From Candidatus Thorarchaeota archaeon (lineage in GTDB: Archaea; Asgardarchaeota; Thorarchaeia; Thorarchaeales; Thorarchaeaceae), in assembly GCA_019057475.1 (NCBI GenBank), contig DXJO01000010.1, positions 96,001 through 160,000 of the forward strand: DNA of 64,000 bases. Reading direction: 5' to 3'. Positions 3,292 to 59,351 of this stretch are shown here, one piece after another. Both the position numbers and the translations under genes were made by a program. The notes under the pieces were generated by a model. It made no database searches and had not been told where the DNA came from. It saw only the letters and a list, made by a program, of their open reading frames with translations. Positions within the stretch are counted from its first letter, which is position 1, and each line of letters begins with the position of its first letter.

Positions 3292-3525
3292 ATGTGTCTT
3301 GCAGTTCCTGGACTTGTCGAGAGCATAGAAGACGACTATGCTGATGTTGACTTTGGTGGAGTCCGAAAGAAGGTGTGCGTGACCCTGCTTCCTGGTCTTG
3401 AGGTGGGCGAGTACGTTATCGTACACACAGGATATGCAATAGAGCGGATGAAACCCGAGGAAGCAAAGAAGACACTGGCTCTCTGGGATGAGATGGCAGA
3501 GATGGCTGCCAAGATGGAGAAGTAG
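3292..3525 (+). CDS. hypC: [NiFe]-hydrogenase maturation chaperone HypC/HupF
   Basis: MCLAVPG N-terminus (ATG 3292), VDFGGVRK and VGEYVIVHTGYAI. Confidence 0.95.
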   Translation: MCLAVPGLVESIEDDYADVDFGGVRKKVCVTLLPGLEVGEYVIVHTGYAIERMKPEEAKKTLALWDEMAEMAAKMEK

Positions 3526-3607
3526 ATTTCATCCGCGTTTTCTTGGCATCCGGAACTCACGGAGTAAGCCTTTTCAATTAGCACGATTCCAGTCCGCCTG
3601 ATGCCAA

Positions 3608-4462
3608 ATGCCGGATACGCTAGAATCAATCATGGCTGAGCTTCGCGCTCGAATCAATACAGAGAACACAAAGACCAAGGTTTCTCCTAAAGAGATTGAG
3701 GAGATGAAGTCACACACCGTTGTGGTCCTACCTGCGGGAGGACGAGGATTGCGAATTCGAAATGAAGCGCAAAGCGGAGATATCAACAAGGCCATGATGA
3801 AGATTAATGGATTGAGCATGATTGAGAAAGCAATTCAGGACTATTCGAGCGCTGGCATCAAACGGTTCGTCGTTCTCACAGGTTTTCTTGCAGAGAAGGT
3901 AGAAGAACACTTGGGCGATGGGTCTAGATGGGGCGTTGAGATCAAATACTCGTGTGACCCAGATGGGCGGAAGGTGGGAAATGCAGGTGCTATCCTGCAC
4001 GCCCTCAACAACGGATCACTGGACGACACCTCGACAAGCATTATCCATAACCCCGACGATGTCATAGTAGGCATGAACCGTCCGTATGGGGATGTGTTCC
4101 TTGAGGGACAGGTGAAGGCAAAGAAGAACGGATGTGTGGCTACTTTCGTCGTTGTACCTGACACTCCATTCCAGTACTCTGGGATGATCATAGAGAACGG
4201 ACGAGTCAAAGATGTTACCAAATACCCGCCAATTGCGATTCCTGCTCATACGGGAATCACCATCTTCGATCCCGAGGTTTACTCCTATTTCCGACGACTT
4301 GTTTCGTTGGAGGCTGAATCCTCGTTTGAAAACGTTGTCTGCCCTGTACTGGCTCGGGAGAAACGACTCTTCGCAATCAACATTCCCTCTGAATGTTGGA
4401 TTCCGGTCAATGATTTGAAAGGGCTTGAAAAGGTAAAGACTGCACTGAGTCATGCTGGCTAA
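3608..4462 (+). CDS. Sugar-phosphate nucleotidyltransferase (NTP_transferase family)
   Basis: LPAGGRGLRIR...KAMMKING, HLGDGSRWGVEIKY and C-terminal WIPVND. Confidence 0.88.
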   Translation: MPDTLESIMAELRARINTENTKTKVSPKEIEEMKSHTVVVLPAGGRGLRIRNEAQSGDINKAMMKINGLSMIEKAIQDYSSAGIKRFVVLTGFLAEKVEEHLGDGSRWGVEIKYSCDPDGRKVGNAGAILHALNNGSLDDTSTSIIHNPDDVIVGMNRPYGDVFLEGQVKAKKNGCVATFVVVPDTPFQYSGMIIENGRVKDVTKYPPIAIPAHTGITIFDPEVYSYFRRLVSLEAESSFENVVCPVLAREKRLFAINIPSECWIPVNDLKGLEKVKTALSHAG

Positions 4463-4491
4463 TGGAATCACGTTTCGAAATGCCCTCTGAA

Positions 4492-4511
4492 GCGATTCCA
4501 TTCGGAATCGC
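4492..4511 (+). terminator. 8-bp stem hairpin downstream of the nucleotidyltransferase gene (possible terminator)
   Basis: GCGATTCC-attc-GGAATCGC, about 30 nt after the stop; no strong U-tract. Confidence 0.3.
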
Positions 4512-4781
4512 AGATGTTTCAACATGTATCATTCTGATTTACTCCATGTCGCAGCAGTCGGAACCGTAAGCATCGGCCCTGTGAAGTAAGGGCTATCATG
4601 ATTATGAGATGAGCGTCCTTGTGGATTGAATGACCGAAAATCATATAGCAGACACGAATTGTACCAGCAACTTGGCAACGTCTGATAACCACATTGGCCT
4701 CTCTGCCATGCTGGTTGGACAACTGCATCTTCGTGATAACAAGAGATCAAGGTATCTTATTCACAAGTAGGAGAAGGTAAA

Positions 4782-5696
4782 ATGAGCAGCGTATTAGTCA
4801 CAGGGGCAAACGGATTCATAGGCTCACATATTGTTCAGCGACTCAAGGAAGAGAATAAAGTCATCAGTCTTGTATACAGCACTGTTCCTGGACGAGGGCT
4901 GGATACTGCCTTGGAAGGAACAACTGTAATTAATTGCGATATTCGCGATCATCACGCTCTTCGGCGCATACTGGCAAGATATGAAGTAAAACAGGTCTTT
5001 CACACGGCTGCGATTTCTATTGTAAAGACTGCATACTTGGATCCAATAGGCGTATTTGACGTAAACGCGATGGGGACTGTCGCTCTTCTGGAAGCTTGCC
5101 GCCAAGTGGGCGTTGAGAAGATTCTGGTTCTTAATACAGACAAAGTATACGGCGAAGGTCTTGATGCCACTGAAGATAAATCCTATCAGCCTAGCGAACC
5201 ATATGCTGCCTCAAAATGCTGTCAGGGGTTCATAGTTCATTCTTTCATTGATACATATGATATGAACATTGTAATGAGTCATTCTTGCAATGTTTTTGGC
5301 TTTGATCCCAATTCCAACCGAATTGTTCCCAACGTCGTGAAGTCCTGTTTGAAGGGAAGAAAACCCAAGATATTCACTAACGATGACTCTGTGAGAGAGT
5401 ACGTATATGTTGAAGATGTCGTCAGCGCGTTTAAACGATTAATGAATGAGGATGAACACCGAGGTTCTCGCAACATATCAACAGGCTGGGTGTACAATCA
5501 GAAAGACATAGTCCTCAAGATACTGGAGCACTTCGAGAGCTTGGAGCCCCAGTACGTCGAGGGTAAAGTGCCATCCCAGATAGACACGCAATCGCTCAAA
5601 TCGATTAGATGGGATTGGAAGCCAGATTGGAGCTTCGATAATGCCATCAAGGCAACAATTGACAAGTTTGCGTTGTACTCCGGTGATTGGAAATAA
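4782..5696 (+). CDS. NAD-dependent epimerase/dehydratase, CDP-glucose 4,6-dehydratase-like SDR
   Basis: VLVTGANGFIG, TDKVY and PYAASK (YxxxK). Confidence 0.85.
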   Translation: MSSVLVTGANGFIGSHIVQRLKEENKVISLVYSTVPGRGLDTALEGTTVINCDIRDHHALRRILARYEVKQVFHTAAISIVKTAYLDPIGVFDVNAMGTVALLEACRQVGVEKILVLNTDKVYGEGLDATEDKSYQPSEPYAASKCCQGFIVHSFIDTYDMNIVMSHSCNVFGFDPNSNRIVPNVVKSCLKGRKPKIFTNDDSVREYVYVEDVVSAFKRLMNEDEHRGSRNISTGWVYNQKDIVLKILEHFESLEPQYVEGKVPSQIDTQSLKSIRWDWKPDWSFDNAIKATIDKFALYSGDWK

Positions 5697-5706
5697 TGAA
5701 CCAATC

Positions 5707-5778
5707 TCCGAGAGCTGGATTCCAGTAAATGACCTCAAGGGCATCGAGAAGGCAAGACAGGCTCTTACGCAGGAATAG
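5707..5778 (+). pseudogene. Orphan 3' tail of a homologue of the nucleotidyltransferase at 3608-4462
   Basis: Translates as SESWIPVNDLKGIEKARQALTQE*, against SECWIPVNDLKGLEKVKTALSHAG* in the intact gene (15/23 identical). Confidence 0.85.
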
Positions 5779-5904
5779 CAGCTCAAGAGTGAGGGTTCAG
5801 CTCTCGTCAACCATATATTTATCCAAGAGGCAATGCTCCAAATACCTTCAGCACAATCACTCAACTCTTAGAACAGCATAATATTCTCGGGAGTTTGACT
5901 GACC

Positions 5905-6603
5905 ATGAGGACTGTCATAGTGCCAACCCTCAATGAAGAAGATAACATTGAACGCCTGGTTCGTTCGATCTTCAAAGTACTTGGCACTTGGAACACTCAT
6001 GTCCTTATCGTCGACGACGACAGTACTGACCGTACACATGAGGTTGTATCAGATTTATGCAACGAGTTCCCTAGTCTACACATGATTGTACGAAAGGGAG
6101 AACGCGGTCTTGGCAGTGCGGTACGCTTGGGTGCATCTCACTATCGTCAGAGCCAAGTCGTAGTCATGGATGCTGACCTATCACACAATCCCAAGTATCT
6201 CCCATCAATGTTTGAGAAACTTGAACAGGGATTTGACGTGGTTGTTGGCTCAAGATATATCCCGAAAGGTGACATTGTCGGGTGGCTGGGAAGCCGAATT
6301 GCAATCAGCAAAGTGGCGACCGCGATGGCCAGAGCGGTGTTCAGGGTTCCAGTGAGTGACCCGATGAGTGGGTTCGTGGGATGCAGGTCTGGAAGGCTCT
6401 TGGAAGAAGGCTTTGACCATGCGGACTTCAAGTTCCTTCTTGAGATGCTTGTTAAAAATAGGTCACTCAGAGTCACCGAGGTCCCGATTGTATTTCATGA
6501 TCGGGCGAAGGGAACAAGCAAACTCGGTGCAATCACAATCGCGCTCTATATTGGTCTTGTTCTCCGGTTACTGTTCACCAAAGGCAGGAGGCCTCTTTCA
6601 TGA
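5905..6603 (+). CDS. GT2 polyprenol-phosphate glycosyltransferase (DPM1-like)
   Basis: IVPTLNEEDNI, VDDDSTDRT, VMDADLSHNP, VVGSRY, DPMSGF and EVPIVFHDR. Confidence 0.92.
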   Translation: MRTVIVPTLNEEDNIERLVRSIFKVLGTWNTHVLIVDDDSTDRTHEVVSDLCNEFPSLHMIVRKGERGLGSAVRLGASHYRQSQVVVMDADLSHNPKYLPSMFEKLEQGFDVVVGSRYIPKGDIVGWLGSRIAISKVATAMARAVFRVPVSDPMSGFVGCRSGRLLEEGFDHADFKFLLEMLVKNRSLRVTEVPIVFHDRAKGTSKLGAITIALYIGLVLRLLFTKGRRPLS

Positions 6604-8717
6604 TTGTTGAAGCCCTGCCCAGATTACGCGAAGTCAAAAAGGTAGACATTCTCCTTGCGGTCTCGGTCCTCCTGAATATCTTGATGGCCATAGCGATGAG
6701 AATAGTCGGGAGCTCGATGTATCCATTCTTCATCTTGATTTATACTTGGATTGCAGTCTACGCGGTCTTCCTATCGCTTATCCTTCGTAGGAACAGAATA
6801 GTCGAAAACCCGCTTATCCGGAAGGGGGTTTCCTTGGCGTTGCTGGTCATGTTGACCATCCTTGTCAGACTCGTTTTCATTGGACAAACCGAGCTGATTT
6901 CTCTCGATAGTGTCTGGTACCTGGATTTCGGCAAATTCATCCAGATGAACATGATGCCATACGCCGACTTCTACTTCCCTTACCCTCCCGTCTTTGCCTA
7001 CTTCATTGTGGTGATCTTCAACCTAGCTCCATCTATAGACAGCTTTAGGGTACTAGCGGCGCTGCTTGATGGAGCGGTCCTTATCGTGCTGTGGAAGATT
7101 GCTGATCGCCATGCGGGACCAAAGTGGGCTTCCTTTGTAGCGCTTGCCTATTCTCTGCTTCCAATCTCCATTATCGAGTCCGGTTGGAATGGGCACTTCG
7201 AACCGCTTGCCAATCTATTCATGCTGTTGTCGTTGTGGTTCATCTTTGATGGCCGCCACCGATTGAGCAGCTTGGCACTGGGCTTGGCTGTCGCCACGAA
7301 AGTATATCCTCTTCTTCTGGCGCCTATCTTCTTCTTTTACATCAAGAGCTGGCGAAAAAGGATCGAGTTTGCTGTAGTAGGAACTTCGACCACTGCGTTG
7401 ACATTTCTACCATTCATCATTCCTGTCTGGATGAGGGGTGGCACGGTTCCACCTAATGGTGCAACTCCTTCCAGCAGTTCCACTGATTTATTCAGTTCTC
7501 TCCTTGGCTTTCTGACCAGTCCACAATATCCCACTCAGGTCGTGTCAATCATTGTCTTCGCATTGGTCTTTCTGGGAAGCATCATGATAGTTCGACAGCT
7601 GGCTCAAGATAATCCCCAATCGAACCATCGTGTGTATCAATGGGCGGTGTTGTTTGCAGGCGCTGTCCTCGTAGTGATGGGTTTGGCTGCCGCTCTGTAC
7701 CCCCTATCTCCTCTGTCGAGGTATGTCTATTGGCGCTATCCTCCCGATATAGGAATTGTGAGGGGCGCCTCAGCTGTCTTCATTGGCTCCCTAATCATGA
7801 TGATGGGATATCGAGGTCTTCGGAAGAAAACAACGATTACTGTTTCCACGAACTCGATGGTCCTCCTTGTTTCGGGAGCACTGCTTCTCATCATGACAAT
7901 GTCACGCGGCGTCTTCTATGGATGGTATCTTCTCTGGCCCTTGCCAATGTTCTTTTTATTGAGGAACAAAAAGCTCGCTATCTTTACGCTGCTTTGTCTT
8001 CTACTGATTTATCCCAGCTATACGCATGACAACTTCGCGTCGCTGGGCTTCGAGGAGAACAGGCTGTGGCAAGACGAGTTCACATCCATGGACGGATGGG
8101 TACCATATGTCAACATATCTGGAACCGGACTACAGCCCAACTTGGTGGAAGCTGGGGTCCGCTCCAATGGGGGCCTAGGAGAGTTCTGGTTCGACACTAG
8201 TGATGTATCAAACGCGTCGCGGCTAGAGAATGTGACAATCTCCTATACGAAATCGGTCCAAATCGATTTCAATATCGATATTGAATTCGTGACAAGGATG
8301 ACCGCCAGCTGGGATCCCACCTTTGGACGATACGCAGACATTTCCCTGATGTACGAGGGTCACGATGAATATGGCCATCGCATCAACGGCACAATCATAC
8401 CTATGATTAGTCTGATGACCAATCTAACCTTCGTCCTGTGGCGGTATTCCTTCTCGATTGCCGAAGTCCCTGTGAATGCGGGGACTATTGACAACCTCAC
8501 TCTTGTCGTTTATCCTGTGCGGTCGGGGTACGCGTTTTATGGAGTCGACTTCTTCTACACAACCTACTATGGGCTCTTGAATCCCTCATTCTTCCTGTTC
8601 ATGCCCATCCACATGGCCTTGGCACTTACCGCATACGCTGTCCTTCATTTTGAGCTGAAGAGATTGGATCAATACGTCACAAGGAAGAAGGAGTTAGATC
8701 CAGAGTCTGCAAAATGA
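6600..8717 (+). CDS. GT-C-fold multi-pass membrane glycosyltransferase (GT87/PIG-M-like) with an extracellular C-terminal domain
   Basis: Many TM segments; PYADFYFPYPP, WNGHFEP, ATKVYP and WYLLW motifs; translationally coupled to the DPM1-like gene. Confidence 0.7.
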   Translation: MIVEALPRLREVKKVDILLAVSVLLNILMAIAMRIVGSSMYPFFILIYTWIAVYAVFLSLILRRNRIVENPLIRKGVSLALLVMLTILVRLVFIGQTELISLDSVWYLDFGKFIQMNMMPYADFYFPYPPVFAYFIVVIFNLAPSIDSFRVLAALLDGAVLIVLWKIADRHAGPKWASFVALAYSLLPISIIESGWNGHFEPLANLFMLLSLWFIFDGRHRLSSLALGLAVATKVYPLLLAPIFFFYIKSWRKRIEFAVVGTSTTALTFLPFIIPVWMRGGTVPPNGATPSSSSTDLFSSLLGFLTSPQYPTQVVSIIVFALVFLGSIMIVRQLAQDNPQSNHRVYQWAVLFAGAVLVVMGLAAALYPLSPLSRYVYWRYPPDIGIVRGASAVFIGSLIMMMGYRGLRKKTTITVSTNSMVLLVSGALLLIMTMSRGVFYGWYLLWPLPMFFLLRNKKLAIFTLLCLLLIYPSYTHDNFASLGFEENRLWQDEFTSMDGWVPYVNISGTGLQPNLVEAGVRSNGGLGEFWFDTSDVSNASRLENVTISYTKSVQIDFNIDIEFVTRMTASWDPTFGRYADISLMYEGHDEYGHRINGTIIPMISLMTNLTFVLWRYSFSIAEVPVNAGTIDNLTLVVYPVRSGYAFYGVDFFYTTYYGLLNPSFFLFMPIHMALALTAYAVLHFELKRLDQYVTRKKELDPESAK

Positions 8718-8830
8718 CAATCGGGTGTAGTGCCAGAGCCTCCTAGATTCCAAGAATGCTCAGGCGCTGGACATGTTCCAGCAACATTTAAAGCAGCACA
8801 CGAATTGCTGCGCAGCAGGTGTGAAACGGG

Positions 8831-9781
8831 ATGGAACGCGTTCTTGTGACAGGAGGAGCTGGCTTCATTGGAAGCCACCTAGTCGACCGATTGATTCGTG
8901 ACAACGAGGTTGTTGTTCTTGATGACCTATCAGCAGGTTCTGAAGAAAACCTGCAACAACATATGGACAATGAACGGTTTAGATTCATCAAAGGTTCAAT
9001 CACAAGGGAAAAAGATGTCAATATGGCCCTAGATGGAGTCACTATAGTGTTTCATTTTGCCGCACAGCCAGACGTTCGCCTCAGCGTTGAGCGTCCGAAA
9101 TGGGACTTCGAGATCAACGTTGGAGGAAGCTTGGAACTCCTAGAGGCCATGAGAAAGAACGATGTGAAGCGGATGGTATTCGCTTCATCCGGCGGGACTG
9201 TCTATGGAGAAACAGATGTCTTTCCAACCCCTGAGGTCACTGCCTTCCGTCCAATAAGCAACTATGGCGCTGCGAAGGGTGCATTTGAGATGTACCTGAA
9301 CTCATACGCCGAGCTATACGGGATTGACTCAGTTAGTATGAGGTTAGCAAACGTAATCGGGCCACGGTCAGCTCATGGAGTAATGCATGACTTCTACATG
9401 AAGCTAAAGAGGAATCCAAAACATCTCGAGGTCCTTGGGGACGGAACACAGGAGAAGGCATACATGTACATTTCCGACACCGTCGAGGCTGCGTTGGTCC
9501 TTGCTGAGAATATTGGGAGGGGTCACCTCCCGGTGAATGTGAGTTCCGGGGAGCGACTGACCGTTACTCGCATCGCTGAGCTTGTGTGCAAGGAACTCGG
9601 CGTTCCCAACGCACACTTAGCCTACACCGGTGGCAAACGTGGGTGGACTGGAGACGTCGTTAGGACCGATATTGACATCACCAAGCTAGCGTCATTTGGA
9701 TGGCAGCCTCGTGTTCCGCTCGAAGAAGGAGTCAGGCTCTACCTGCGTTGGCTAATCAAGAAGTTCGGCCCTGTGAAGTAG
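8831..9781 (+). CDS. NAD-dependent sugar epimerase (UDP-glucose 4-epimerase-like SDR)
   Basis: VLVTGGAGFIGSHL, FASSGGTVYG, YGAAK, LGDGTQEK and GWTGDV. Confidence 0.92.
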   Translation: MERVLVTGGAGFIGSHLVDRLIRDNEVVVLDDLSAGSEENLQQHMDNERFRFIKGSITREKDVNMALDGVTIVFHFAAQPDVRLSVERPKWDFEINVGGSLELLEAMRKNDVKRMVFASSGGTVYGETDVFPTPEVTAFRPISNYGAAKGAFEMYLNSYAELYGIDSVSMRLANVIGPRSAHGVMHDFYMKLKRNPKHLEVLGDGTQEKAYMYISDTVEAALVLAENIGRGHLPVNVSSGERLTVTRIAELVCKELGVPNAHLAYTGGKRGWTGDVVRTDIDITKLASFGWQPRVPLEEGVRLYLRWLIKKFGPVK

Positions 9782-25737: not shown

Positions 25738-25742
25738 ATCGG

Positions 25743-40119: not shown

Positions 40120-40120
40120 A

Positions 40121-46152: not shown

Positions 46153-46238
46153 CCTACTCAGCTCTGGATGTTCCTACCCTTTTCAACACTACGATTCTGC
46201 TCGCCAAACACAACTCTGGAGATCGGCCCGAGAATGTC

Positions 46239-46545
46239 GGAAAACTCCTTGCGGCCAAGAATGCTCAGAAGGATCCAGACTTCATGGTGATTGCTAGAGT
46301 AGAAGCCCTCATCGCAGGATGAGGCATGGATGAAGATCTCACTAGGTTTCGCGAGTATGAACGAGCTGGGGCTGACACAATACTAATCCACCACAAGGAC
46401 TCAGACCCTTCCCCCATTCCGAAACTCATCAAGAAATGGAATGGTGGAGAGCCGCTTGTTCTTGTGCCAACCAAGTATCCATCATTCAACGAGAATCAGA
46501 TGAAATGGTCAGGAAGGGTGGGGATGGTAATCTATGCTAACCGTA
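46239..46545 (+). pseudogene. pepM: Internal fragment of phosphoenolpyruvate mutase
   Basis: GKLLAAKNAQKDPDFMVIARVEALIAG*GMDE..AGADTILIH..PLVLVPTKY..MVIYAN; TGA at a Trp position (46320); both ends missing. Confidence 0.8.
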
Positions 46546-46649
46546 GCATCAATCATTCCAGTTCCAGGCGGAATTGAAAACAGCATGCAAATATGAGCCA
46601 CAAGTAGATGGTATCCAAGTGGATATGTCAGTGCAGTTGAATCATATGG

Positions 46650-49389: not shown

Positions 49390-49506
49390 TTATGCTGGTT
49401 CGGTGTTTTTCGATACTAGCGCCTGAAGTACGCCGAAGAACATACCGGTAATCTCATCCTATTCCAGTGATTCTGAGAACCTCAGTGCTGCATCAGAGAG
49501 TTCTTG
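49390..49506 (-). pseudogene. GT4 3' tail remnant
   Basis: QELSDAALRFSESLE*DEITGMFFGVL; TAG at the usual W of the C-terminal WD.I motif. Confidence 0.5.
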
Positions 49507-49666
49507 GAACTGTTTCCGAGTCACCATAGACTGTTCCACCTGAAGACGCAAACATGACACTATTAATGCTACTCTTGCGCATTGATTCTAAGAAAGTCAT
49601 CCCACCAACCGTGTTGATCTCGAAATCGAACTTGGGCTTCTTCGTGCTCAGTTTCGCATCCGGCTC
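49505..49666 (-). pseudogene. Internal fragment of a homologue of the epimerase at 8831-9781
   Basis: EPDAKLSTKKPKFDFEINTVGGMTFLESMRKSSINSVMFASSGGTVYGDSETVP, against QPDVRLSVERPKWDFEINVGGSLELLEAMRKNDVKRMVFASSGGTVYGETDVFP. Confidence 0.88.
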
Positions 49667-49780
49667 CCTGCGAGCTTGTAGTTCCGGTGCCCTATGATCT
49701 TGGAAAAGATCTACAACTCAGCTTCTATGCCTGATGAGCCTAGAAAGAATAGATTCCAACTTGGGGCCGATACACTTGAG
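49665..49780 (-). repeat. 116-bp direct repeat, copy A (3' end of the WbuB-like GT plus downstream DNA)
   Basis: Ungapped match to 59236-59351 with 8 mismatches by hand count; perfect run at 49710-49752. Confidence 0.95.
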
Positions 49781-49827
49781 GTGACGTACCACTCTTGATG
49801 GTATTCCTCCTCGGACCTTGTTGATTT

Positions 49828-50016
49828 GAGGGAGTGATTACTAACTACGAGAGCGAGTGCTCTCCCAACCATTCAGTCGCGAAGACTATAACCTATCAGG
49901 ATTTGATGCACAGAAGATACAATGCTTCGGAGATTCAGATCGCAGACGATGGTGTGTATTCCATCCTGAAACTGGAGCTTGGAGTTCCAGCTCTGCACGA
50001 CCACTGCAAGAGTCAT
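49828..50016 (-). pseudogene. GT4 C-terminal remnant
   Basis: LQFQDGIHTIVCDLNLRSIVSSVHQIL..SLRD*MVGRALALVVSNHSL. Confidence 0.5.
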
Positions 50017-50032
50017 ACACGCTTTTGCTGTA

Positions 50033-51535
50033 CTAGTCTCCGAACATGAGGTTGAGAGCTGGGCTGGCATAAGCGTAGAATCTTCCAACAGTTTCCTCTG
50101 ACAGGATTGAACGGGCTATCTCATCGATGTCATTCCTAGTGATGATTCCCAGTCGCCCATAGCCCCCAACGGTCGCAAGAAGAAGCACCGGCACGCCAAC
50201 AAGCCAATGGATGTTGAACATAACCAGTATCATTGCAATAGACCCAGGAACCAATATCGTCTTGACGTACATACCCCAATCCAACCGATATCCGGTTCTG
50301 CGGCTGGATACAACCACAGCCAGGATCGCTATTGCAGGACCTAGTGAGTAGGAAATCGAGGCTCCTAATCCGGATATTGCGACAACTAGAGGGAAGTACA
50401 GGATAATTCGTCCAAGGTTCAACGAAACCCCTATTCCTGTCACATGTTGGTATTTGCCGGTTGCGTAGACATAGCTATTGTATCCCACCACGATAGGCGT
50501 AAGTAGGGCACCAAGCACCAGGATTTGCAGCATGAGTGACGCTGGTAAGTAATCCGGACCAAGCAGTAAGAATGGAAGGTATGAATAAACAGCTAATGTG
50601 CATGCCAGAGGTGCTGTTGCAACAAGCGAAAGCCGAATAGCTTGAGATATGGCTTGCTTTCGCCCGTGTTGCATACCACTAAGCAACGGGAACATCAACG
50701 CAAGCCCTCTTGTGGGCAAGACGTAGACGATTTGTCCTACCGCGAAAGCAAGATAGTATAACCCCGTTTCGCCGCTCCCGATAATGCTGAATACGATGAG
50801 AACGCCTACGGAGTTCCCGAGGGTTGCCAGAAGGCGCGGAATCCATGCCGCATATCCAGTCAGTACCAGATTCTTGAGACTGTCTAGGGTGGGCTTGAAC
50901 ATTGCCTTGGACGAGAAGACCCGTGTGCTGTAGAATAGGAAGACTGCATCAACAGTAATAAATCCCATAATGAAACCGGAAATTGCACCCCAGAACCCTA
51001 GCCCAAGATTGAGAAGCATAAGGCCTATAACGATTTTTAGTGTAGATGATGCTATCAATGACTTGGCAATTACCTCAGTTCTCATCGTAGCGATGAACAG
51101 AGAGTGAAAGAGAGGGCTCCATGATGTTAAGATGAGGATTAGTGCAATCAGGATAAGCTCAATTGCACTCAAACCCAAGAATCCTGTGCTTGTCAAGGAT
51201 CCCACAAGAATCGTGATGCTCACCAGAATATGGATAACAACCAGGTAGACTAGTCCGGTGCCGAAGTATGTGCTAATACTCTCTTCGTCACCTTTAGCAT
51301 AGATCATCCCTATGAAACGTTGTAGACCGGCAGGAATTCCTATTGAGAACAGCATTACCAATACACTTTGCAATGCCAGAATAACTGCAATGGATCCAAT
51401 AACGCTAGGTGACACGTATGCCGATACGACTATCCAGTACACATACCCCGCTGCATTTGAAACTATCGTCCCGATCAACAGCCAAAGACTGCTTCTGAAT
51501 ACCTCACCCAACTTCAGTTCATCTGTCACCTCCAA
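50033..51535 (-). CDS. Wzx-type oligosaccharide flippase
   Basis: About 14 TM; GIPAGLQRF, ETGLYYLA, MFPLLS and LLGPDY. Confidence 0.88.
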   Translation of the reverse strand: MEVTDELKLGEVFRSSLWLLIGTIVSNAAGYVYWIVVSAYVSPSVIGSIAVILALQSVLVMLFSIGIPAGLQRFIGMIYAKGDEESISTYFGTGLVYLVVIHILVSITILVGSLTSTGFLGLSAIELILIALILILTSWSPLFHSLFIATMRTEVIAKSLIASSTLKIVIGLMLLNLGLGFWGAISGFIMGFITVDAVFLFYSTRVFSSKAMFKPTLDSLKNLVLTGYAAWIPRLLATLGNSVGVLIVFSIIGSGETGLYYLAFAVGQIVYVLPTRGLALMFPLLSGMQHGRKQAISQAIRLSLVATAPLACTLAVYSYLPFLLLGPDYLPASLMLQILVLGALLTPIVVGYNSYVYATGKYQHVTGIGVSLNLGRIILYFPLVVAISGLGASISYSLGPAIAILAVVVSSRRTGYRLDWGMYVKTILVPGSIAMILVMFNIHWLVGVPVLLLATVGGYGRLGIITRNDIDEIARSILSEETVGRFYAYASPALNLMFGD

Positions 51536-51658
51536 TGACTTCTGGGATAATCGAGTGGCTGATGAATCGCGGTTGATTCAATAGCAAATCCCGCTGAAGA
51601 TGGGTCAGACTGCCAGGCCTATCAGGCATTGTCGGTGCTATGCCTTGAATGGATCTGA

Positions 51659-52972
51659 CTATTTCAGGAACCTCCTGAAAAAGGAAATTATGCGCTTTGA
51701 AACGAGAAACATCTTCAAAAATATCCAGAGCGCCCCCCTAGATGCAAGAGCTCTACCAACATAGAGATCGATCGCCAATAGGTAGGATTCTATGCCGGGG
51801 AGAGGAAATGCCTGTTTCTGTTCGACTATCGGGAACTTTTTCTGGAAGATACGGGAAATTCTCTTCCGACTAATGACTTTCTCAGGTTTCTTCGCTAAAC
51901 CCGGCTGCAAACTTCCTATGATGTCTTTCGCTAAAGGAGTTGCGTGGATTCTGTACGCTCTTTTTGCGTCCCTCACTAGGGACTCACCAAGAGCCGTTCG
52001 TGTAATCATAAGCGAATTGCCCATTCCGACAAGTTGTTGCGATGACCACATATCACCACACGAAACATCCGAGAACTCGTTGAACCCCTGTGTACAGATT
52101 GTGCATCTGAAAGGGAAGAAGTACTCAGTAACTCCTTGCCAATATTGGGGGTAAGATCGGGTCATTCGCCTTCTATTCTCTTGATTCCTTCTTTCGAGAA
52201 GTAAACGACCTGGCCACCCTCCTCCTCTATATTCGATTCTGGACAACGATTCAAGATCAAAGCCATAAAGGTGGAGGAGATAACGAGTGCCGAGGTATGT
52301 TGGAGCTCCTCCACAAAGTAATCCGATAATAAAAACAAGGCCTTTCTTATAGACTGGATTAATTTCTGTGAGCCTTCTGATGGCATATGCTTGACAAGGA
52401 AGAGCTACAACTCCAAATCGATTATTGGGGCCAAGCCGTTTCAGACCTTCTGCGAATGACACAGGACAGTACTTCGAGCCGGCAGCCAATGACACCTCCT
52501 TGGACGTGCGGGCCAAGAATGTTCTAGCATATGGCAGCCTATCGACCTCCAGTCGTGTTAGGACTGCCGAATCGATTATCCCTTTCTCGAATGCGAATTG
52601 CACCAGAGCAGTGACTATACCACCTGAGGATGATGAGTTGGCAATTGACTTATTCGTCGTGCTACCAGAATACGCATTGATGTGGTTGCCTAGCAGACCT
52701 GCGTTTTCTGAAACCAATCGCCCACTTGATTCCTGTTGGGCTACACCATAGCCGAAACAAACTTGGAGACACTTTTGACACAGTAGGCATGAATCCCTAT
52801 CTACTGACGGTATTGGAAGTCCCTTTGCAGAGTTGTATGTCATTCTTATCGAGTGGTTTGGGCAGGCTACTTCACATACTCCACAGCCCATGCAGAGGTT
52901 GTGATAGACTACATACTCGATGTTTCTCATCTCAACCATTTTGGATCCCACCGGCAGATCACCGTGATACAC
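51659..52972 (-). CDS. FrhB/FdhB-like protein with an N-terminal 2x[4Fe-4S] ferredoxin domain (polysaccharide-locus type)
   Basis: CMGCGVCEVACP, CLLCQKCLQVC, SSSGGIVT, GSKYCP, LPCQ, EYRGGGWPG, RCTIC and DVSCGD. Confidence 0.88.
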   Translation of the reverse strand: MYHGDLPVGSKMVEMRNIEYVVYHNLCMGCGVCEVACPNHSIRMTYNSAKGLPIPSVDRDSCLLCQKCLQVCFGYGVAQQESSGRLVSENAGLLGNHINAYSGSTTNKSIANSSSSGGIVTALVQFAFEKGIIDSAVLTRLEVDRLPYARTFLARTSKEVSLAAGSKYCPVSFAEGLKRLGPNNRFGVVALPCQAYAIRRLTEINPVYKKGLVFIIGLLCGGAPTYLGTRYLLHLYGFDLESLSRIEYRGGGWPGRLLLERRNQENRRRMTRSYPQYWQGVTEYFFPFRCTICTQGFNEFSDVSCGDMWSSQQLVGMGNSLMITRTALGESLVRDAKRAYRIHATPLAKDIIGSLQPGLAKKPEKVISRKRISRIFQKKFPIVEQKQAFPLPGIESYLLAIDLYVGRALASRGALWIFLKMFLVSKRIISFFRRFLK

Positions 52973-52981
52973 GTTTCAAAC

Positions 52982-54307
52982 TCACAGAATAGGTAATTGT
53001 GATTCAAGTACCTTTTTCAGCAAAGCTCCGTTCAAAAGTGCCCCCTTCTTGGCAGACATTACTATCGGAACTAGGCAACTGCTTATGTTTTCTCTCTCTG
53101 ACGCCATTCTTTGGACTAGATTAACGAGTTCTTGATTCTTATGATGCTCAACGTAATATATCCATTTTCCTTGTTTCAGCATACTCCCTACAAGGCCTAC
53201 TGACCTAACATCCGATTGATATGAGAGGGTACATGAAGGTGTACCCATTGATAGCGCACCTATAACTGAGTGTATCCTCGCTCCTATCATCAAATCCGAT
53301 TTGCCCATTAAGGCCTTCAATTCTGCAGTGGAGTACTCCTTTCGAAAGACGTGTACATTCTGGTGGTTTGTCATCACACTAGCGATATCCTCCCCCACAA
53401 CTCTATCATCGCGACCTTCATGTGATTCGATACAGTGCGGTAAGAAAAGTATTTCCCCATCAAGACTGTCTATTATCATGTCAAACGATTTGGCTAATTC
53501 CCTAACCGCCATGTCATACCTGAGGTTTTTTTCTGAAACAGAAGGATAGAATTTCAGAAGGAGACTTCTGGTTACTGTTACACTCACCAGTAACCTATCC
53601 TTGGGTATTTTCTCGTTCGTAAGTATCTGATCTGCCGTGCTCGAATCCGCTGCAGGGGCCAGAATCGCTGGGTCTCCTGTGAGAATCACGCGTGGAGATC
53701 CACCAGATAGCATCTTGAGGTATCGGTAAGAGTATTTGTCCCTCACTGTAACCAAAGCGGCACTCTTAAGAACGTAGCCCGCCAGTGACTCCCATATCTT
53801 CCTTTTGTATCCAGACGTACCATTGCCATAAACCACAATAGGCTTCTTGAGCACCCGGGCCACAAGAGTGATGTAGACTGGACTGTACGTGAGGAGGAAT
53901 CCTCCAGCACAACCCACACCATTATGACAGATTACGTAGAGGTCGGAATAAAAATACAGACTCCAGATCCGCTTTTTCATCACCTTTAGGACATTATTCC
54001 CAATGAGAATGTACAGCATGATAAAAAGGAAGTGCTGGATGAAACCAAAGAGCGCTGTTTTTAGGCTATTTAGTAGAGAATTATCATGAAGCACATCTCC
54101 AAGATGCAGGTCGCTTCGGATATCGACAGTACCAACACCGGATGGATATCGCGCCGCATCAATGAACGGCTGAAATGAGAAAACGTTGGCCTCGTAGTCG
54201 CCAAGAACGTCGAAAGTCTTGAGCATTCCATTGAGAATCGCCAGTTCGCCTTTGTTTAAACTGGGAATCCATTCTGCTATCAGAATTCGCACCTTGGACC
54301 CATTCAT
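52982..54307 (-). CDS. Polysaccharide pyruvyltransferase (WcaK-like)
   Basis: NKGELAI, VTVRD..S, GDPA, DDR and GARIHSVIGAL. Confidence 0.9.
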   Translation of the reverse strand: MNGSKVRILIAEWIPSLNKGELAILNGMLKTFDVLGDYEANVFSFQPFIDAARYPSGVGTVDIRSDLHLGDVLHDNSLLNSLKTALFGFIQHFLFIMLYILIGNNVLKVMKKRIWSLYFYSDLYVICHNGVGCAGGFLLTYSPVYITLVARVLKKPIVVYGNGTSGYKRKIWESLAGYVLKSAALVTVRDKYSYRYLKMLSGGSPRVILTGDPAILAPAADSSTADQILTNEKIPKDRLLVSVTVTRSLLLKFYPSVSEKNLRYDMAVRELAKSFDMIIDSLDGEILFLPHCIESHEGRDDRVVGEDIASVMTNHQNVHVFRKEYSTAELKALMGKSDLMIGARIHSVIGALSMGTPSCTLSYQSDVRSVGLVGSMLKQGKWIYYVEHHKNQELVNLVQRMASERENISSCLVPIVMSAKKGALLNGALLKKVLESQLPIL

Positions 54308-54330
54308 TAGATTTGTTCCTCCGGATTAGT

Positions 54331-57300
54331 TCACCGCCCGAATAGCAATGCCAGTTTCCGTACCCGATCCGCTTTGCGCAGCTTTTTTTGTGTCTTGGAT
54401 AGAACACACCAAAGAGTACCCACGATTACGGACCATACAGTAAGCTGCAGAATACTCTCCACTTCGTTCCATTGAAACTTTATTGCAGTCGAAGTCTTCG
54501 TCCCTGTCAACGTGAATTCCGAGATGAATGTATAAGTGTCTGAGGCCATCAGCTTAAAACCGACATTACCTTCAAGCAGGATATCATCACCATCAACTGG
54601 CAGTTGCAGATGTGCATCATAAAGCGTGTACAGTGTTTTGAACTCAGACATCCCGGAGTTGTCAACCAGCAGGGGCGTTCTGGCAACTATCTCGAAATCC
54701 CCGAACAATGTCAATTCACTTAATTCGACATTGAATATCTGGGTTATATTCTCTGACACAACAGTAAGACTCACTTCCCCTTCCAGAAACCTAACAACGG
54801 GATTTCTCATGCGTAAGTTCACGTAGAAACCTTTCCCGGGAATAATTTCAAGCGTATCGCACGCGACGCTATTTAGATTTCTGCATGCAAAGTGAACGCC
54901 CTCTATCCCGGTGATAGTCCTCGTTTCATTCATTAGATGAATAATCCCCCGGGCAACATCAATAGCTGTAAATGAGGCGAGGGCACTGAATCTGGTTGTG
55001 CACTCACCTTGCAATTTCGCTGATTGGAAGAACGCGGTGCTGCCTCCGTACGCCCAAGTGTGTGTGCTCTCGGCCAGACTAATGTCGATGTCGACGATGT
55101 CGTACAAGCTTCCTAGAACCTGAACTAACGGCCTCCATTCTCTGATGCTGGCGACTGCATGAGTGTATGATTGGTTTATCTGCTGAGGCGTCAGGACGCT
55201 GTTATGGATTGCAACTGAATTCATGGAACCATTCAATAACCAGTTATCATCATGTCGTTTTCCAATGATTAGTGAAAGATTGTCAGGCGCAATCATCTCG
55301 CTGAATTCGCGATTCGCTATCCTCGAGCCGTCAACGTAGAAATTGACTTCTCCCGACCCTACTGTAACAGCCACATGATAATACCGACCCGGTTCCAGCT
55401 CCCTGAATCCAGCAGACACCGTGCTGTAAGTTGTTCCGTTGCCACTGTTGAAAAGGAAGTTGGTGCCATCAAACATGTAGCCATATCCGGTAGATACCTT
55501 GTATCCCTCTATCTTGCTGATTATTGTGAACCCATCATCGGGGCGTTCTGGACTAATCCATGCCTCAATTGATAGCTCGGTTGTTTCATTTAGCTCTTCA
55601 GCATTTGTTATCTCTACATAATCATCCACGCCATCGAAGCTCAAAGAGAACCCCAATGAATCAATGATTCTACTTGGTCCGAAAAGAGTTCCAGTGTTTG
55701 AATTACCTGAATAATCTGAAATCGACCCGCCAGTGGATTCATCGAAACGGAACTCAAGTATGCTTTTCGAGTAATTGAGTGTTTCGATGCTGAGGAGTTC
55801 CTTTATTATCGGAAAGATGTTCATATACACTAGGTGGACATTCCCGACAACTAATTTAGCAGCCAAAGCTGTACGGTTTTGATTGTTTGCGTACCACGCT
55901 ATGATTGTAGCATTGTCCTCTACGAAAGACAACTGCTCACATTCTACTGGCGAAGGAAGCAGAAGTGTGGAGTTATGATTCTCAATCCAGTATGCTACCA
56001 TTGTATCAGTTGTGTTCCTGTCGAAAAGCGCATTTGAAATGGGTCCAAACCCATTTTGATTAATAATAACAACCTGCGTCGAGCTCGGCTCGTTTTCGGC
56101 GTTGAGAGCAATGCTATTGAGTAAATCGAGAGTCGTGTTAGTATCTTCGGATAACACTACAATTTGAGAACCAAGAATCGTTTCTACATCGCTTGGAAGG
56201 CTCACTGTGTAGTTGTAACCACCAAGATACAGCATTTCATATGCGTAGAAGCCAGCTACACCTACTTCCTCACTGGTCACCAAAGTCAAGTCACTTGTGT
56301 ATGACGGGGGAACCCCAGCCAAAATCTCAAAGCACTCGACATCTTCGTTTGAGAAGACTTCTTTGAAAATGCTGGACATATGTGAGGCTAAGTAGCTCGT
56401 AAAGTAGGATTCTTGGATGTACTGCTGATCATCCTGTGTCAGATAGACGTAAGGCGAGGGGTATCCACTGCTCTGCAGAAGTATCAAGGGGATATCAGGA
56501 TACAAAGACCCCCAAACTGGCATTCGGTATCGGTTGATGCGGTAAGGCGACGGGACAAAATCCATGGTTCGTCGAGACGAATCTGAAACAGTCAGGATTG
56601 GAGTTCTTGCATCCCTGACTGTTGGTGATGAAAGGAACTCGATTGCTTCAAGGGTTCGCTCGTCGAGAGGCGGTGTCATTCTTGAGCTCCTGTACTCGAT
56701 AGTAATGAGAGTGGACATTAATCCACTGAACACAACAATCAGGATTACGCAGAATGCAAGTGACTTATTATTACTATCCAGTTTCTGAACTTTCTTCATG
56801 AAGGGCACCGAGGCGACAACCGAAACCATTGCTAGAACAAGCGGCAGGAATCGCCGCTCACCATAGCCGAAGTCAATAACAAATGCGTTCAGGATACTTA
56901 TTGACTTTCCAACGATGACTGTAGTAACAAGTATCACAATCGCAACTTTAAGACCCATCTTGAACCTCGGATTAGACAGCCATGGTAGACTTGCGGGGAG
57001 CATCATCCCCGCAACTCCCATGATTAGTGGGTATAGAATTATTGGTACGAAGTATGTACTCGAAACCGATGCTGCAGAGAAGCCATTCGGTATGCTAAGC
57101 CAGGAAAGCAGACCCGCGATAAGGATAATTAGCAAAATCGCCGCAATATGATTATGATTGATTGCTTTCAATGGATTTTCATACGTGGGGAACTGACTGA
57201 ATGATAATAGTGCCGTAGCGACGGCAATTCCCATAAGAATTAGCTGCTCAATGAGCGAGAATGGCTGAATAAACCCGCCAAATGACCCCGAAAGCCCGAC

Positions 57301-58593
57301 ACACAGCAGGAATACAATCACTCCCAGTAACGAAGAAACTGTGACCGGTCTGATGGAATCACGAAACGATTTGCCTGCGAACATAACGACCATGAACAAG
57401 ATGACTTGGAAAAGCAAGAGTTCTGGAAGGTGCACTAGACCTAGTATCAGGACTAGAAGAGCCACCAATATCATCTTCTTGAATCTCTGCATTTCGTTGT
57501 TAAGCATGATGTGAACAAGTACAAAAATTAGAACTAGTGAAACAGTCATAGGACGGAACCACAACCAGAGCCAAGGCCCATTGGCAGATCCAATGTCCCA
57601 ATAGGTCATGTCACGAAGAGTACGGAAAACAGTCCCCAGAGGGCCGTCAGGAAGCCACGGGGAGAATAGAGCAATCCAGCCGAACCCTGCGAAGAACGAG
57701 AAGAAGAGAGTCGAAAGCACAGCCATACGACTGTCATTCAGAAGCATCCTGGCCATAACATAGAATGCTGCAATGAAAATGATCCCAAGGAAGCTCAACC
57801 CAGTCAGAAGCACCTCAAAGGAGGGATTCAACATCGTGATGATAGTTGCCCAAGGCATGTGGAACCAAGGATAGACTGATTGATACACATCAGGCACTTG
57901 TACTAGCAGTGTTGCCTCAGAGAAATGCCGAACTATGTCCAGACCCTTTTGATGTGCCATTTGGGGGTATACACAGGCAATGACTGAAAGGAAGCCAAGA
58001 GATATCGAAAGCAGCATCGCTGATTCTGCGATACCAAGAGTGAATTTGACTTGACCAAAGCCTTGATGGTCCAGGACCCTTGATGTCGTCGAACGGAGGA
58101 CGAGGAGGGCTGACAAGACTGCATATGTTGCCAGAATCAACCATCGTGCATTGACGCCGACTGATACACACCCAGAATAGATAATTGAGGTCAAACCCAT
58201 ACTCAGCGCGAAAGAGAGGACAGGCCATTCAATCCAGCTTTTCATATGACGATATTGGAGGAATCTGAGAAGTGCGTAGCCTGGCAGGAAAAAAGCGATT
58301 GTGATTGCAATCATCGTCACTGCCAAGTCATTTAATTTCTGAATCGTGGCCCAAGTCAATACCACAATAGCGAGTAATATCATCACATTGATGGTGGCCT
58401 CGAGTTTCGTCGTGTCGAAGGTTATCGTGGTATGTTTCTGCTCTTCCCGAATTAGCAAATAGACAAGTGGGGGCATGGTAACTTGGATTGCAAAGAGGAC
58501 ATATTTCACTGGAGATACAAAATGGATGAGTATTCCGATTGCCATCAAAGCCGAAAAAATAGCCATAGCGGCGGCCATTGATTTCAAGTTCAT
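54331..58593 (-). CDS. 1420-aa multi-pass membrane protein (GT-C-like N-half) with an extracellular LamG-like domain
   Basis: Over 15 TM in the first 630 aa with GLDIVRH and ERRF; LamG-like FDE..G..ISDYSGN.NTGTL..SFDGVDDYV..SIEAWI..YHVAVT..FYVDG; C-terminal TM. Confidence 0.75.
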   Translation of the reverse strand: MNLKSMAAAMAIFSALMAIGILIHFVSPVKYVLFAIQVTMPPLVYLLIREEQKHTTITFDTTKLEATINVMILLAIVVLTWATIQKLNDLAVTMIAITIAFFLPGYALLRFLQYRHMKSWIEWPVLSFALSMGLTSIIYSGCVSVGVNARWLILATYAVLSALLVLRSTTSRVLDHQGFGQVKFTLGIAESAMLLSISLGFLSVIACVYPQMAHQKGLDIVRHFSEATLLVQVPDVYQSVYPWFHMPWATIITMLNPSFEVLLTGLSFLGIIFIAAFYVMARMLLNDSRMAVLSTLFFSFFAGFGWIALFSPWLPDGPLGTVFRTLRDMTYWDIGSANGPWLWLWFRPMTVSLVLIFVLVHIMLNNEMQRFKKMILVALLVLILGLVHLPELLLFQVILFMVVMFAGKSFRDSIRPVTVSSLLGVIVFLLCVGLSGSFGGFIQPFSLIEQLILMGIAVATALLSFSQFPTYENPLKAINHNHIAAILLIILIAGLLSWLSIPNGFSAASVSSTYFVPIILYPLIMGVAGMMLPASLPWLSNPRFKMGLKVAIVILVTTVIVGKSISILNAFVIDFGYGERRFLPLVLAMVSVVASVPFMKKVQKLDSNNKSLAFCVILIVVFSGLMSTLITIEYRSSRMTPPLDERTLEAIEFLSSPTVRDARTPILTVSDSSRRTMDFVPSPYRINRYRMPVWGSLYPDIPLILLQSSGYPSPYVYLTQDDQQYIQESYFTSYLASHMSSIFKEVFSNEDVECFEILAGVPPSYTSDLTLVTSEEVGVAGFYAYEMLYLGGYNYTVSLPSDVETILGSQIVVLSEDTNTTLDLLNSIALNAENEPSSTQVVIINQNGFGPISNALFDRNTTDTMVAYWIENHNSTLLLPSPVECEQLSFVEDNATIIAWYANNQNRTALAAKLVVGNVHLVYMNIFPIIKELLSIETLNYSKSILEFRFDESTGGSISDYSGNSNTGTLFGPSRIIDSLGFSLSFDGVDDYVEITNAEELNETTELSIEAWISPERPDDGFTIISKIEGYKVSTGYGYMFDGTNFLFNSGNGTTYSTVSAGFRELEPGRYYHVAVTVGSGEVNFYVDGSRIANREFSEMIAPDNLSLIIGKRHDDNWLLNGSMNSVAIHNSVLTPQQINQSYTHAVASIREWRPLVQVLGSLYDIVDIDISLAESTHTWAYGGSTAFFQSAKLQGECTTRFSALASFTAIDVARGIIHLMNETRTITGIEGVHFACRNLNSVACDTLEIIPGKGFYVNLRMRNPVVRFLEGEVSLTVVSENITQIFNVELSELTLFGDFEIVARTPLLVDNSGMSEFKTLYTLYDAHLQLPVDGDDILLEGNVGFKLMASDTYTFISEFTLTGTKTSTAIKFQWNEVESILQLTVWSVIVGTLWCVLSKTQKKLRKADRVRKLALLFGR

Positions 58594-58749
58594 TAGCTAT
58601 TTCAACCAATGTTTTCTCAAGACAATGGCCAGCTTATGCAGCCCTTCAGAGTCAGTCCCAGTTACAGAATCCATCAGTCTTGGCAATATGACTACGTGGC
58701 TTTTCCCCAGGTTATTAAGATTCTGTTTCCAAGCTGCAACTATACGATT

Positions 58750-59058
58750 CTAACAGTCTAGAAGTCGCACCAATAACTCAATCCAGATTACTAGTACCTT
58801 TGCAAAGTCAAAGCAGCTGGCCACATATTGGAGTGCATTGCCTGCAATTCGTTTCAGGGAATGGGGATCATCCAGTAGTTGGATGATACGATTGGAGCGC
58901 ATCGGAGGATCATTCGATTCAAGGATGAGCCCATTATGGCTGTTCTCAATGATTTCAGTCACTGACCCGACACCTGATATCAAGACACGTGTGCCGCACG
59001 CCATTGCTTCAAGCATTACATCAGGCAGTCCTTCAGTATAGGAGGGGAGTACAAATAG
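58750..59058 (-). pseudogene. GT4 3' fragment (same subfamily as 44992-46152)
   Basis: LFVLPSYTEGLPDVMLEAMACGTRV..NDP....RI..LL; no N-terminal domain. Confidence 0.82.
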
Positions 59059-59067
59059 TCTTCCTCG

Positions 59068-59156
59068 TCGTAAAGACTCTCGCGCAGGTTTTTGATTACC
59101 TTACCCCGCACCCTTTTTTCATTGTACGCTGGGATTGCGACAATCAACCTGGACAA
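59068..59156 (-). pseudogene. GT2 5' fragment
   Basis: (L/M)SRLIVAIPAYNE, frameshift, then GKVIKNL; compare MKLVVMIPAYNEEKTVGKVIDEI in 30386-31117. Confidence 0.7.
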
Positions 59157-59235
59157 GGGGACTCCACACTCTCCTTTCTTGATGAGCAGTGGATACTATG
59201 GCACATAAATGTGCTTGGTCTGCTTTGCGTCGGGT

Positions 59236-59351
59236 TCCCTGCGAGCTTGTAGTTCCGGTGTCCTATAATCTTGGATAGGCTCTACAACTCAGCTTCTATG
59301 CCTGATGAGCCTAGAAAGAATAGTTTCCAACTTGTCGCCGATACACTTGAG
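59236..59351 (-). repeat. 116-bp direct repeat, copy B
   Basis: Partner of 49665-49780 (offset 9571 bp); covers the last 20 codons and the stop of 59289-60548. Confidence 0.95.

Follow-up and report, generated by a model that had tools for sequence, protein, structure and literature searches.

The stretch analyzed here (the window) comprises 64 kb of a Candidatus Thorarchaeota genome (G000:C42:96001-160000), located on a 471-kb contig (C42) of a 3.34-Mb metagenome-assembled genome (MAG; G000). An archaeal SSU rRNA is present in this MAG, and the named genomes closest to it are MAGs of Candidatus Thorarchaeota. It holds a surface-glycan locus in which several intact genes are accompanied by a second copy of only their 3' end, hereafter called an orphan tail. 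Pfam scans identified, in order from the left, an OTCase-like gene, a radical-SAM gene (rSAM), a VapBC pair and hypC, followed by ~60 kb of glycan genes. These include at least 12 GT4, two GT2 and one GT87 glycosyltransferase genes, six epimerase/dehydratase genes, three flippases, a pyruvyltransferase with an FrhB-like partner and a carbamoyltransferase. Further, a single large open reading frame (ORF) without a family, at 27737-29473, encodes a polytopic membrane protein. There was no match in tRNA and Rfam scans of the window.

The sequence-only reading of this DNA had reported orphan tails of four genes, namely hypC, a nucleotidyltransferase (NTPtr1) and two GT4 genes (GT4f and GT4k). A comparison of the window with itself recovered all four pairs at the positions that had been given, and the coordinates place two of the smaller blocks inside the block bracketed by the hypC pair, as had been described. 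The same comparison revealed a fifth repeat that had been missed, and the window contains at least eight gene relics besides the four tails. Between 3142 and at least 29700, the window was matched collinearly by a Logan contig from run SRR1964815, on which unk166, a gene of the right flank described below, was present too. The junctions are therefore not an artefact of one assembly. Further, the arrangement around the epimerase gene epim1 was found again in three more assemblies at 91-95% identity. Within the genus, positions 1-18 kb of the window were recovered piecewise at 84-96% identity, and nothing corresponding to 18-60 kb was found in six incomplete congeners. The congener comparisons showed that the content of the island is variable and not invariant among relatives.

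Occupied and empty alleles of NTPtr1 and GT4f

NTPtr1 (3608-4462, plus strand; Pfam NTP_transferase) possesses a conserved body, 89-95% identical across all haplotypes of the genus, and a 3' end that is dimorphic from ~4392. The last 75 nt of the gene in the window (type A, the substitute end) were only 58.7% identical to those of the genus-level contig L057 but 88-92% identical to those of L056 and G001. The native end (type B) is found in the window as an orphan tail at 5707-5778 (plus strand), continuous with GT2a and, together with the DNA downstream, 91.4% identical in nucleotides to the intact end in L057. The match between the two copies in the window (4388-4462 and 5707-5778; 15/21 amino acids, 41 bits in tblastx, with a stop at the end of both) is weak alone. 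The pair is real because the tail and its downstream DNA are 91% identical to an intact 3' end in L057.

Contig L057 represents the empty site. Its NTPtr1 body runs straight into the orphan-tail sequence and then into GT2a and GT87, at ~92% identity to the window (L057 9632-10806 aligns to window 3237-4413, and L057 10781-13674 to window 5707-8600). The adjacency of NTPtr1 and GT2a is the norm in the family, and the orphan tail also resembles the NTPtr1 C-termini of family members. The DNA that separates them in the window is a 1.3-kb insert (the epim1 cassette, 4392-5706, plus strand), which is absent from L057 and consists of the type-A 3' end, a 319-nt spacer and a dehydratase/epimerase gene at 4782-5696. 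It was inserted in register, and resident sequence was neither lost nor duplicated beyond ~3 nt. The far end of the insert lies 10 nt past the epim1 stop codon, where it is joined to unrelated resident sequence with ~3 nt of putative microhomology at this illegitimate joint. The occupied form is also present in L079-L081. A third haplotype of the genus (L056 1253-4597; G001:C70) was observed to carry a 3.3-kb insert in the spacer between NTPtr1 and epim1, at window 4567-4571; this insert contains a distinct GT2 and terminates in the head of an epimerase gene. An apparent 36-amino-acid NTPtr1 tail in G088 was dropped, as it is located at a contig end.

GT4f (24502-25737, plus strand) exhibited the same organization of a conserved body and a divergent end. 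Its intact orthologue P0108, on contig L084, was identical at 320/332 positions over residues 1-332 (96%) but at only 27/64 over residues 343-406 (42%). The substitute 3' end thus starts at ~25497-25527, just after the conserved motif EGMASGLPVV. The native end is stranded downstream as an orphan tail (27451-27636, plus strand), which was 90-92% identical in amino acids to the C-terminus of P0107/P0108 and just 45-46% identical to the end of GT4f itself. The flanks in L084 could be aligned with the DNA to the left and right of a 1.9-kb insert in the window, which contains the substitute end, then GT4g and finally the truncated head of an epimerase gene (window 22784-25526 with L084 2659-5401, 94.8%; window 27457-27735 with L084 5421-5699, 90% in nucleotides). 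The cargo proper occupies 25743-27450 (plus strand), with GT4g at 25743-26891, a spacer and the 5' head of an epimerase gene at 27170-27450 identified by Pfam, and is absent from L084 between 5401 and 5421. This epimerase head marks the far end of the incoming DNA. The orphan tail begins at P0108 residue 349, indicating that 6-16 codons (18-48 nt) of the resident gene were lost in the window. L084 retains these codons; therefore, the empty state is ancestral and the joint was non-conservative. A possible GGGTT microhomology is present at the illegitimate joint. Two translations that overlap the putative "ugd-like C-terminus" previously reported at 26970-27083 had no Pfam match.

In both events, the homologous anchor is the conserved gene body and the other end was joined without homology. 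The sequence-only reading had proposed that incoming modules replace the end of a resident gene and move the old tail downstream, and the relatives with empty sites show such a replacement for NTPtr1 (L057) and GT4f (L084). We conclude that 1.3-1.9 kb of DNA, comprising a substitute 3' end and cargo, was inserted into NTPtr1 and GT4f and that their native ends were displaced.

Further tails, repeats and relics in the window and its relatives

The intact hypC (3292-3525, plus strand; Pfam HupF_HypC, E = 4.6e-26) shares its part from 3385 to 3525 with an orphan tail at 39424-39561 (plus strand), 57 nt upstream of unk166. The homology starts with an identical 10-mer, CTGCTTCCTG, in both copies and amounts to 70% of nucleotides between 3385-3497 and 39424-39536 and to 29/45 amino acids. 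The tail has no internal stop and ends in a stop codon of its own, and the invariant HTGY is altered to HLAY. It was 66% identical in nucleotides to its own intact copy and 61-73.5% identical to hypC genes of the family, the highest values being with other genera; thus, it does not group with the copy in the same window. The rate of nonsynonymous change (dN) was 0.26, with synonymous change (dS) saturated. For the hypC and NTPtr1 pairs together, dN was ~0.22-0.26 and dS was saturated, which supports the view that the copies diverged as functional genes.

The genes on either side of the locus are shared widely. The order common in the family, as in L031, is rSAM-hypC-NTPtr1-GT2a-GT87-GT4a-GT4b-Wzx1-GT4d-unk166-YdjM. 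Elsewhere in the family, unk166-YdjM comes immediately after NTPtr1 or is separated from it by a few other genes, and in G012 hypC adjoins unk166. In the window, unk166 and the gene for a YdjM-like membrane protein occupy 39619-40621 (plus strand), with synteny in L031, L037, L038, L058, L061-L063, L065, L067 and L078. Thus, rSAM-hypC-NTPtr1 on the left and unk166-YdjM on the right are the conserved flanks of a hypervariable surface-glycan locus. Since the core adjoining hypC is syntenic across the family, it was inherited, and the 36-kb block between the two hypC copies did not arrive in one insertion as had been supposed; the intact hypC 3' end is, moreover, of the type present in all genus-level relatives recovered. 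The intact gene was 91.5-98% identical in nucleotides to L056 and L057 on both sides of 3385. The last 62 nt of the tail together with unk166-YdjM were 88% identical in L076, and no hypC tail was found upstream of unk166 in 13 family loci.

Contigs L076 and L077 are two unk166-YdjM contigs of one MAG (G045 = CSMAG_407); their mutual identity is 85-92%, and their identity to the window is ~88%. The core genes of the genus in which this MAG is placed (g11, as seen in G016) are merely ~67-76% identical in amino acids to those of the window, pointing to mis-binning or to recent exchange between genera. We do not claim an inter-genus transfer of the block formed by the tail and unk166, because these short contigs may be mis-binned and that MAG is listed at 7% contamination. 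Further, hypC in the window (1-3525) and in the family loci always occurs with the radical-SAM and OTCase-like genes, beside the nucleotidyltransferase and glycan genes. No hydrogenase genes accompany it in these loci, and its role here may be other than hydrogenase maturation.

The fourth pair lies on the minus strand. Repeat copy A (59216-59351) consists of the last 63 nt of GT4k (59289-60548) and 73 nt downstream, and copy B (49645-49780) is the orphan GT4k tail, which is followed by an internal piece of an epimerase gene at 49505-49666. The copies were 89% identical over 136 nt, with a perfect core of 43 nt. Between them lies a 9.4-kb module (49781-59215, minus strand) that encodes, according to Pfam, a GT4 C-terminal fragment, a LamG membrane protein, a pyruvyltransferase, an FrhB-like protein and the flippase Wzx3. 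Over 21 codons, dN was 0.067 and dS was 0; there is therefore no sign of selection on this pair. By these values, its 89% identity and its perfect core, the repeat is young. Logan contig L083 corresponds exactly to the window from 59310 to 49723 and is bounded at both ends by the shared 43-mer. The hypC and GT4k pairs may have arisen in the same way as those of NTPtr1 and GT4f.

The fifth repeat is a relic of the UGDH 3' part and the head of NTPtr2 (22326-22863, plus strand), ~73% identical to the copies at 34747-35605 and with an internal deletion of 320 nt. It lies 12 kb upstream of the intact pair and is therefore outside the pattern in which tails lie downstream; L084 lacks a further 351 nt of it. 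Other relics are the epimerase head and the internal epimerase piece mentioned above (27170-27450 and 49505-49666) and a GT4 C-terminal fragment at 58753-59100. Pfam also supported relics of the 3' part of a class-I methyltransferase gene, encoding its C-terminal part (24129-24416, minus strand), and of the 3' part of a phosphoenolpyruvate mutase gene (46155-46574). A split GT4 gene (43706-44203 and 44349-44858) has an N-terminal half like GT4k and a C-terminal half like other GT4 genes; two genes may have been fused in the whole (43706-44858), or a frameshift may have interrupted it. CapK-like pieces at 29835-30140, 30055-30267 and 36586-36876 had no Pfam match. A rough count over all loci gave ~13 tails, 4 heads and 4 internal pieces. 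The relics thus comprise heads and internal pieces as well as tails, and at least one tail in a congener arose by deletion at a microhomology and not by insertion. In this congener (G006:C255; L051), the epim2 segment present in the window at 8702-9722 (plus strand) is deleted. The junction between GT87 and the 3' end of epim2 lies at an 11-nt microhomology, GAAGAAGGAGT, and the epimerase tail remains. By this deletion GT87 acquires a new C-terminus that is translated from the epimerase tail in a different reading frame.

Similar structures were found at the same locus in other Thorarchaeota. In L076, YdjM has a new end, GT2 cargo comes next, and an 81-nt duplication precedes the native tail of YdjM; the empty form is seen in the window and in L077. 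In L061, 361-nt repeats comprising the rSAM tail and the hypC head surround an ORF of 617 amino acids, and in L059/L060 a 600-nt NTPtr1 tail lies behind a TylF-like methyltransferase gene. L063 and L078 each carry several tails (of hypC, NTPtr1, GT4h, epim1 and YdjM), and L063 also has two whole NTPtr1 and two unk166 copies in tandem. The cargo genes encode epimerases, GT4 and GT2 glycosyltransferases and methyltransferases, with no toxin tip accompanied by an immunity gene, and no recombinase was found among the Pfam-scanned cargo ORFs of L058, L059, L061 and L063. The 617-amino-acid ORF lies between hypC and NTPtr1 in both L061 (6968-8821, minus strand) and L059 (6422-8275, minus strand) and has only a weak match to Helicase_C_3.

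Two other kinds of variation were observed in the window. A 190-nt interspersed repeat resembling a miniature inverted-repeat transposable element (3050-3240; terminal inverted ends ~AAAGnTGGAC), with a partial copy at ~2210-2269, occurs in 13 copies in G000 at 79-90% identity and in many more in congeners. The left partial end and the full copy bracket orf81-VapB-VapC, and G005 and L057 lack the whole stretch 2206-3235 between rSAM and hypC. Further, the segment 12450-16373 (GT4c, C5-epimerase-like, GH130 and CBS genes) is replaced in G001:C264 (L047) by ~2.1 kb with a VapC-like PIN gene.

Origin of the displaced ends and comparison with known systems

These results suggest that the locus probably grows by homology-anchored illegitimate recombination, with a result known in bacterial toxin loci as C-terminal displacement, and is then eroded by microhomology deletions. 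DNA from a related archaeon would pair with the conserved 5' body of a gene common to both genomes. Pairing would stop where the genomes diverge, namely at the 3' end of the gene just past a conserved motif. A few to ~100 nt from this point, the resident gene would be connected, with no need for homology, to the far end of the donor DNA. The product would be a resident gene with the donor 3' end, followed by the donor cargo, the stranded resident tail and the original downstream genes. Selection would retain only those events that leave the anchor gene whole, and microhomology deletions would later erode tails and cargo. The DNA would have to enter the cell from outside, and RadA and end-joining enzymes are the presumed agents of its recombination.

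The joints vary from event to event. Measured from the homology switch to the second joint, the offset extends from 18-48 nt lost, by way of ~0, up to 81, 136, 361 and 600 nt duplicated, and hypC was broken at codons 35, 43 and 57/58 in different events. There was no motif common to the junction sequences; a 7-mer, CTTCCTG, common to the hypC and GT4f junctions was judged to be due to chance. No family of attC-type repeats was found at the cassette borders in the comparison of the window with itself.

Several observations weigh against this reading. The NTPtr1 insertion is exact within ~3 nt, which a random second joint would yield only sometimes, and little microhomology is present there. A search for the donor of the new GT4f end and its cargo matched only the window's own protein. 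No empty site was found in a family-wide DNA search with the hypC tail and unk166, and the intact hypC 3' end is the type common to every genus-level relative recovered, so that the hypC tail may represent either an end that was displaced long ago or the left border of an unk166 block that was imported. For GT4k, no nucleotide relative of the gene or of the context of its tail, and hence no empty-site comparator, was found in 85 family genomes, and the integrated state of its module is seen in the JGI assembly only, because the k=31 assembly graph forms a loop. Further, the duplications in L076 and at GT4k fit a circular intermediate equally well.

The duplications bring forward the alternative that survives best, namely Campbell-type integration, in which circular DNA carrying a piece of the anchor gene and cargo is integrated by one homologous crossover that can be reversed by looping out. 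A model of this type was proposed for rhs loci (Jackson et al., 2009; PMC2935791). Over the 81 nt that are duplicated in L076, identity to the window was 92.6% for the intact YdjM and 84% for the tail copy, which reached 90.5% further on, as expected of hybrid repeats. The 361-nt repeats of L061 are arranged accordingly, with whole rSAM and the hypC head, cargo, and then the rSAM tail and whole hypC. The GT4k module is enclosed by 136-nt repeats whose perfect core measures 43 nt, and it appears as a loop in the assembly graph at k=31. A Campbell event, however, must duplicate the whole shared segment, as is seen in L076, L061 and the GT4k pair but not in NTPtr1 and GT4f; at GT4f, 18-48 nt of resident sequence disappeared and there was no duplication at all, and the NTPtr1 event duplicated at most 3 nt. 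The circular form itself was not observed. We regard a circular intermediate as possible for the events with duplications, and Campbell-type integration as an unlikely explanation of the locus.

Deletion provides a second alternative, in which the relics are mere leftovers of clusters that were once larger or in tandem, and the tails were kept for the start signals of the next gene. The loss of epim2 in G006 at an 11-nt microhomology produced just such a tail. Also in its favor, the UGDH relic is shorter in L084, the window contains heads and internal pieces, and L063 has tandem pairs of whole NTPtr1 and unk166. The hypC and GT4k tails could be explained in this way. NTPtr1 and GT4f, by contrast, are chimeras of a native body and a foreign end that switch where the tail begins, for which deletion alone is insufficient, and the rough count of ~13 tails against 4 heads and 4 internal pieces is also unfavorable to it. 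We consider this explanation improbable.

A site-specific recombinase encoded elsewhere in the genome, which would insert cassettes into gene 3' ends and restore them in the manner of integrons or of e14 in icd, is more improbable still. Eight matches to the tyrosine recombinase family (PF00589) are present on other contigs of the genome, the NTPtr1 insertion is precise within ~3 nt and the hypC homology starts with an identical 10-mer. None of the matches was on the 471-kb contig and no recombinase was found among the window ORFs scanned, in agreement with the earlier statement that no integrase was in view. The variable hypC breakpoints, the lack of a common motif and the variable offsets exclude a conservative site-specific system; further, resident sequence was lost at the GT4f joint and repeat families of the attC kind are absent. 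Thus, the term "integron-like" in the sequence-only reading is apt as an analogy but not as the name of a system, given the imprecise joints and the lack of a dedicated recombinase or common junction motif. Finally, local duplication of gene ends with neutral decay, or chimeric metagenome assembly, has hardly any credibility. In its favor, the genome is a MAG and the GT4k pair has dN 0.067 and dS 0 in 21 codons. It is largely refuted for three of the four pairs, as the hypC and NTPtr1 pairs combine a saturated dS with a low dN, intact genes in other genomes resemble the tails at 90-91% identity and the structures recur in independent assemblies.

The scars at this locus, together with the corresponding empty and occupied alleles, make the joints legible, and they indicate host recombination rather than the enzymes of mobile elements. 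They also show a surface-glycan island that grows by the addition of single cassettes, whereas the usual picture is replacement of the whole island. This bears on cell-surface diversity, and probably on virus resistance, in the closest archaeal relatives of eukaryotes. Our literature search found no description of C-terminal displacement for archaeal or Asgard glycan loci. A wider and rather doubtful proposal is that Thorarchaeota, and perhaps archaea more widely, run a recombinase-free cassette platform, in which short, conserved motif patches in the 3' part of a few anchor genes would be preferred crossovers and modules would loop out and move between cells. If so, glycan genes of different genera would be captured and stacked in order at anchor genes, repeat-flanked modules such as the 9.4-kb pyruvylation block would move as circles between cells, and the whole would be a functional counterpart of integrons made by host recombination alone.

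In integrons and in integrative elements that restore a gene 3' end, such as e14 in icd and tRNA-targeting islands, the 3' end of the target gene is supplied by the incoming DNA. The locus described here resembles them in the stepwise addition of genes at one place and in the origin of the gene 3' end from incoming DNA, but differs in having no integrase, no att or attC core, variable breakpoints and one non-conservative joint. Closer parallels are found in bacterial toxin loci. In the rhs and contact-dependent inhibition (CDI) loci of Enterobacteria, a laterally acquired end displaces the old one and leaves an orphan tip downstream without a dedicated recombinase, and homologous recombination at the conserved boundary was invoked for rhs (Jackson et al., 2009; PMC2935791). 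A conserved gene body, a variable 3' end and a former native end stranded downstream are common to rhs and the present locus. In contrast to rhs, the anchors here are ordinary enzyme or chaperone-like genes (nucleotidyltransferase, GT4, YdjM and hypC), the cargo consists of glycan-synthesis genes instead of pairs of toxin tip and immunity gene, each array has one tail and not a long string, and the host is an Asgard archaeon. Further, two events here occurred without duplication, unlike in the circular-intermediate model for rhs.

The arrays of orphan immunity genes in the type VI secretion system (T6SS) of Vibrio cholerae were explained by homology-facilitated illegitimate recombination, and their authors pointed to the parallel with integrons and to the missing integrase (Kirchberger et al., 2017; PMC5361080). 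The upstream conserved anchor, the illegitimate join of a non-homologous end and the downstream shift of old modules are the same; the gene class and the domain of life are different, and here the joints and offsets can be read from pairs of empty and occupied alleles. For glycan loci, the capsule island of Neisseria meningitidis lies between an intact galE1 and a truncated galE2, and illegitimate recombination into the resident gene was proposed (Bartley et al., 2017; PMC5349592). There too, the island is bordered by what is left of a resident sugar-nucleotide gene after truncation on its 5' side, next to an intact copy that came with the island. That island, however, arose in one large event with inverted regions D and D', whereas the present locus underwent several small, nested, direct events with in-register replacement of gene ends. 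In replacement flexible genomic islands for exposed cell structures, homologous recombination acts on the two flanks and the island is exchanged whole (Lopez-Perez et al., 2014; PMC4033161). They share with the present locus a fixed place between conserved flanks and a content that differs in close relatives, but their exchange leaves no scar, whereas single cassettes were added here and orphan tails were left. Thus, such a recombinase-free mode of gene addition is known from bacterial toxin loci, and our search found no account of it in archaeal glycan clusters. Because the process is assembled from mechanisms known in bacteria, the value of this locus lies in its clear allele pairs and in the lineage and not in a new principle.

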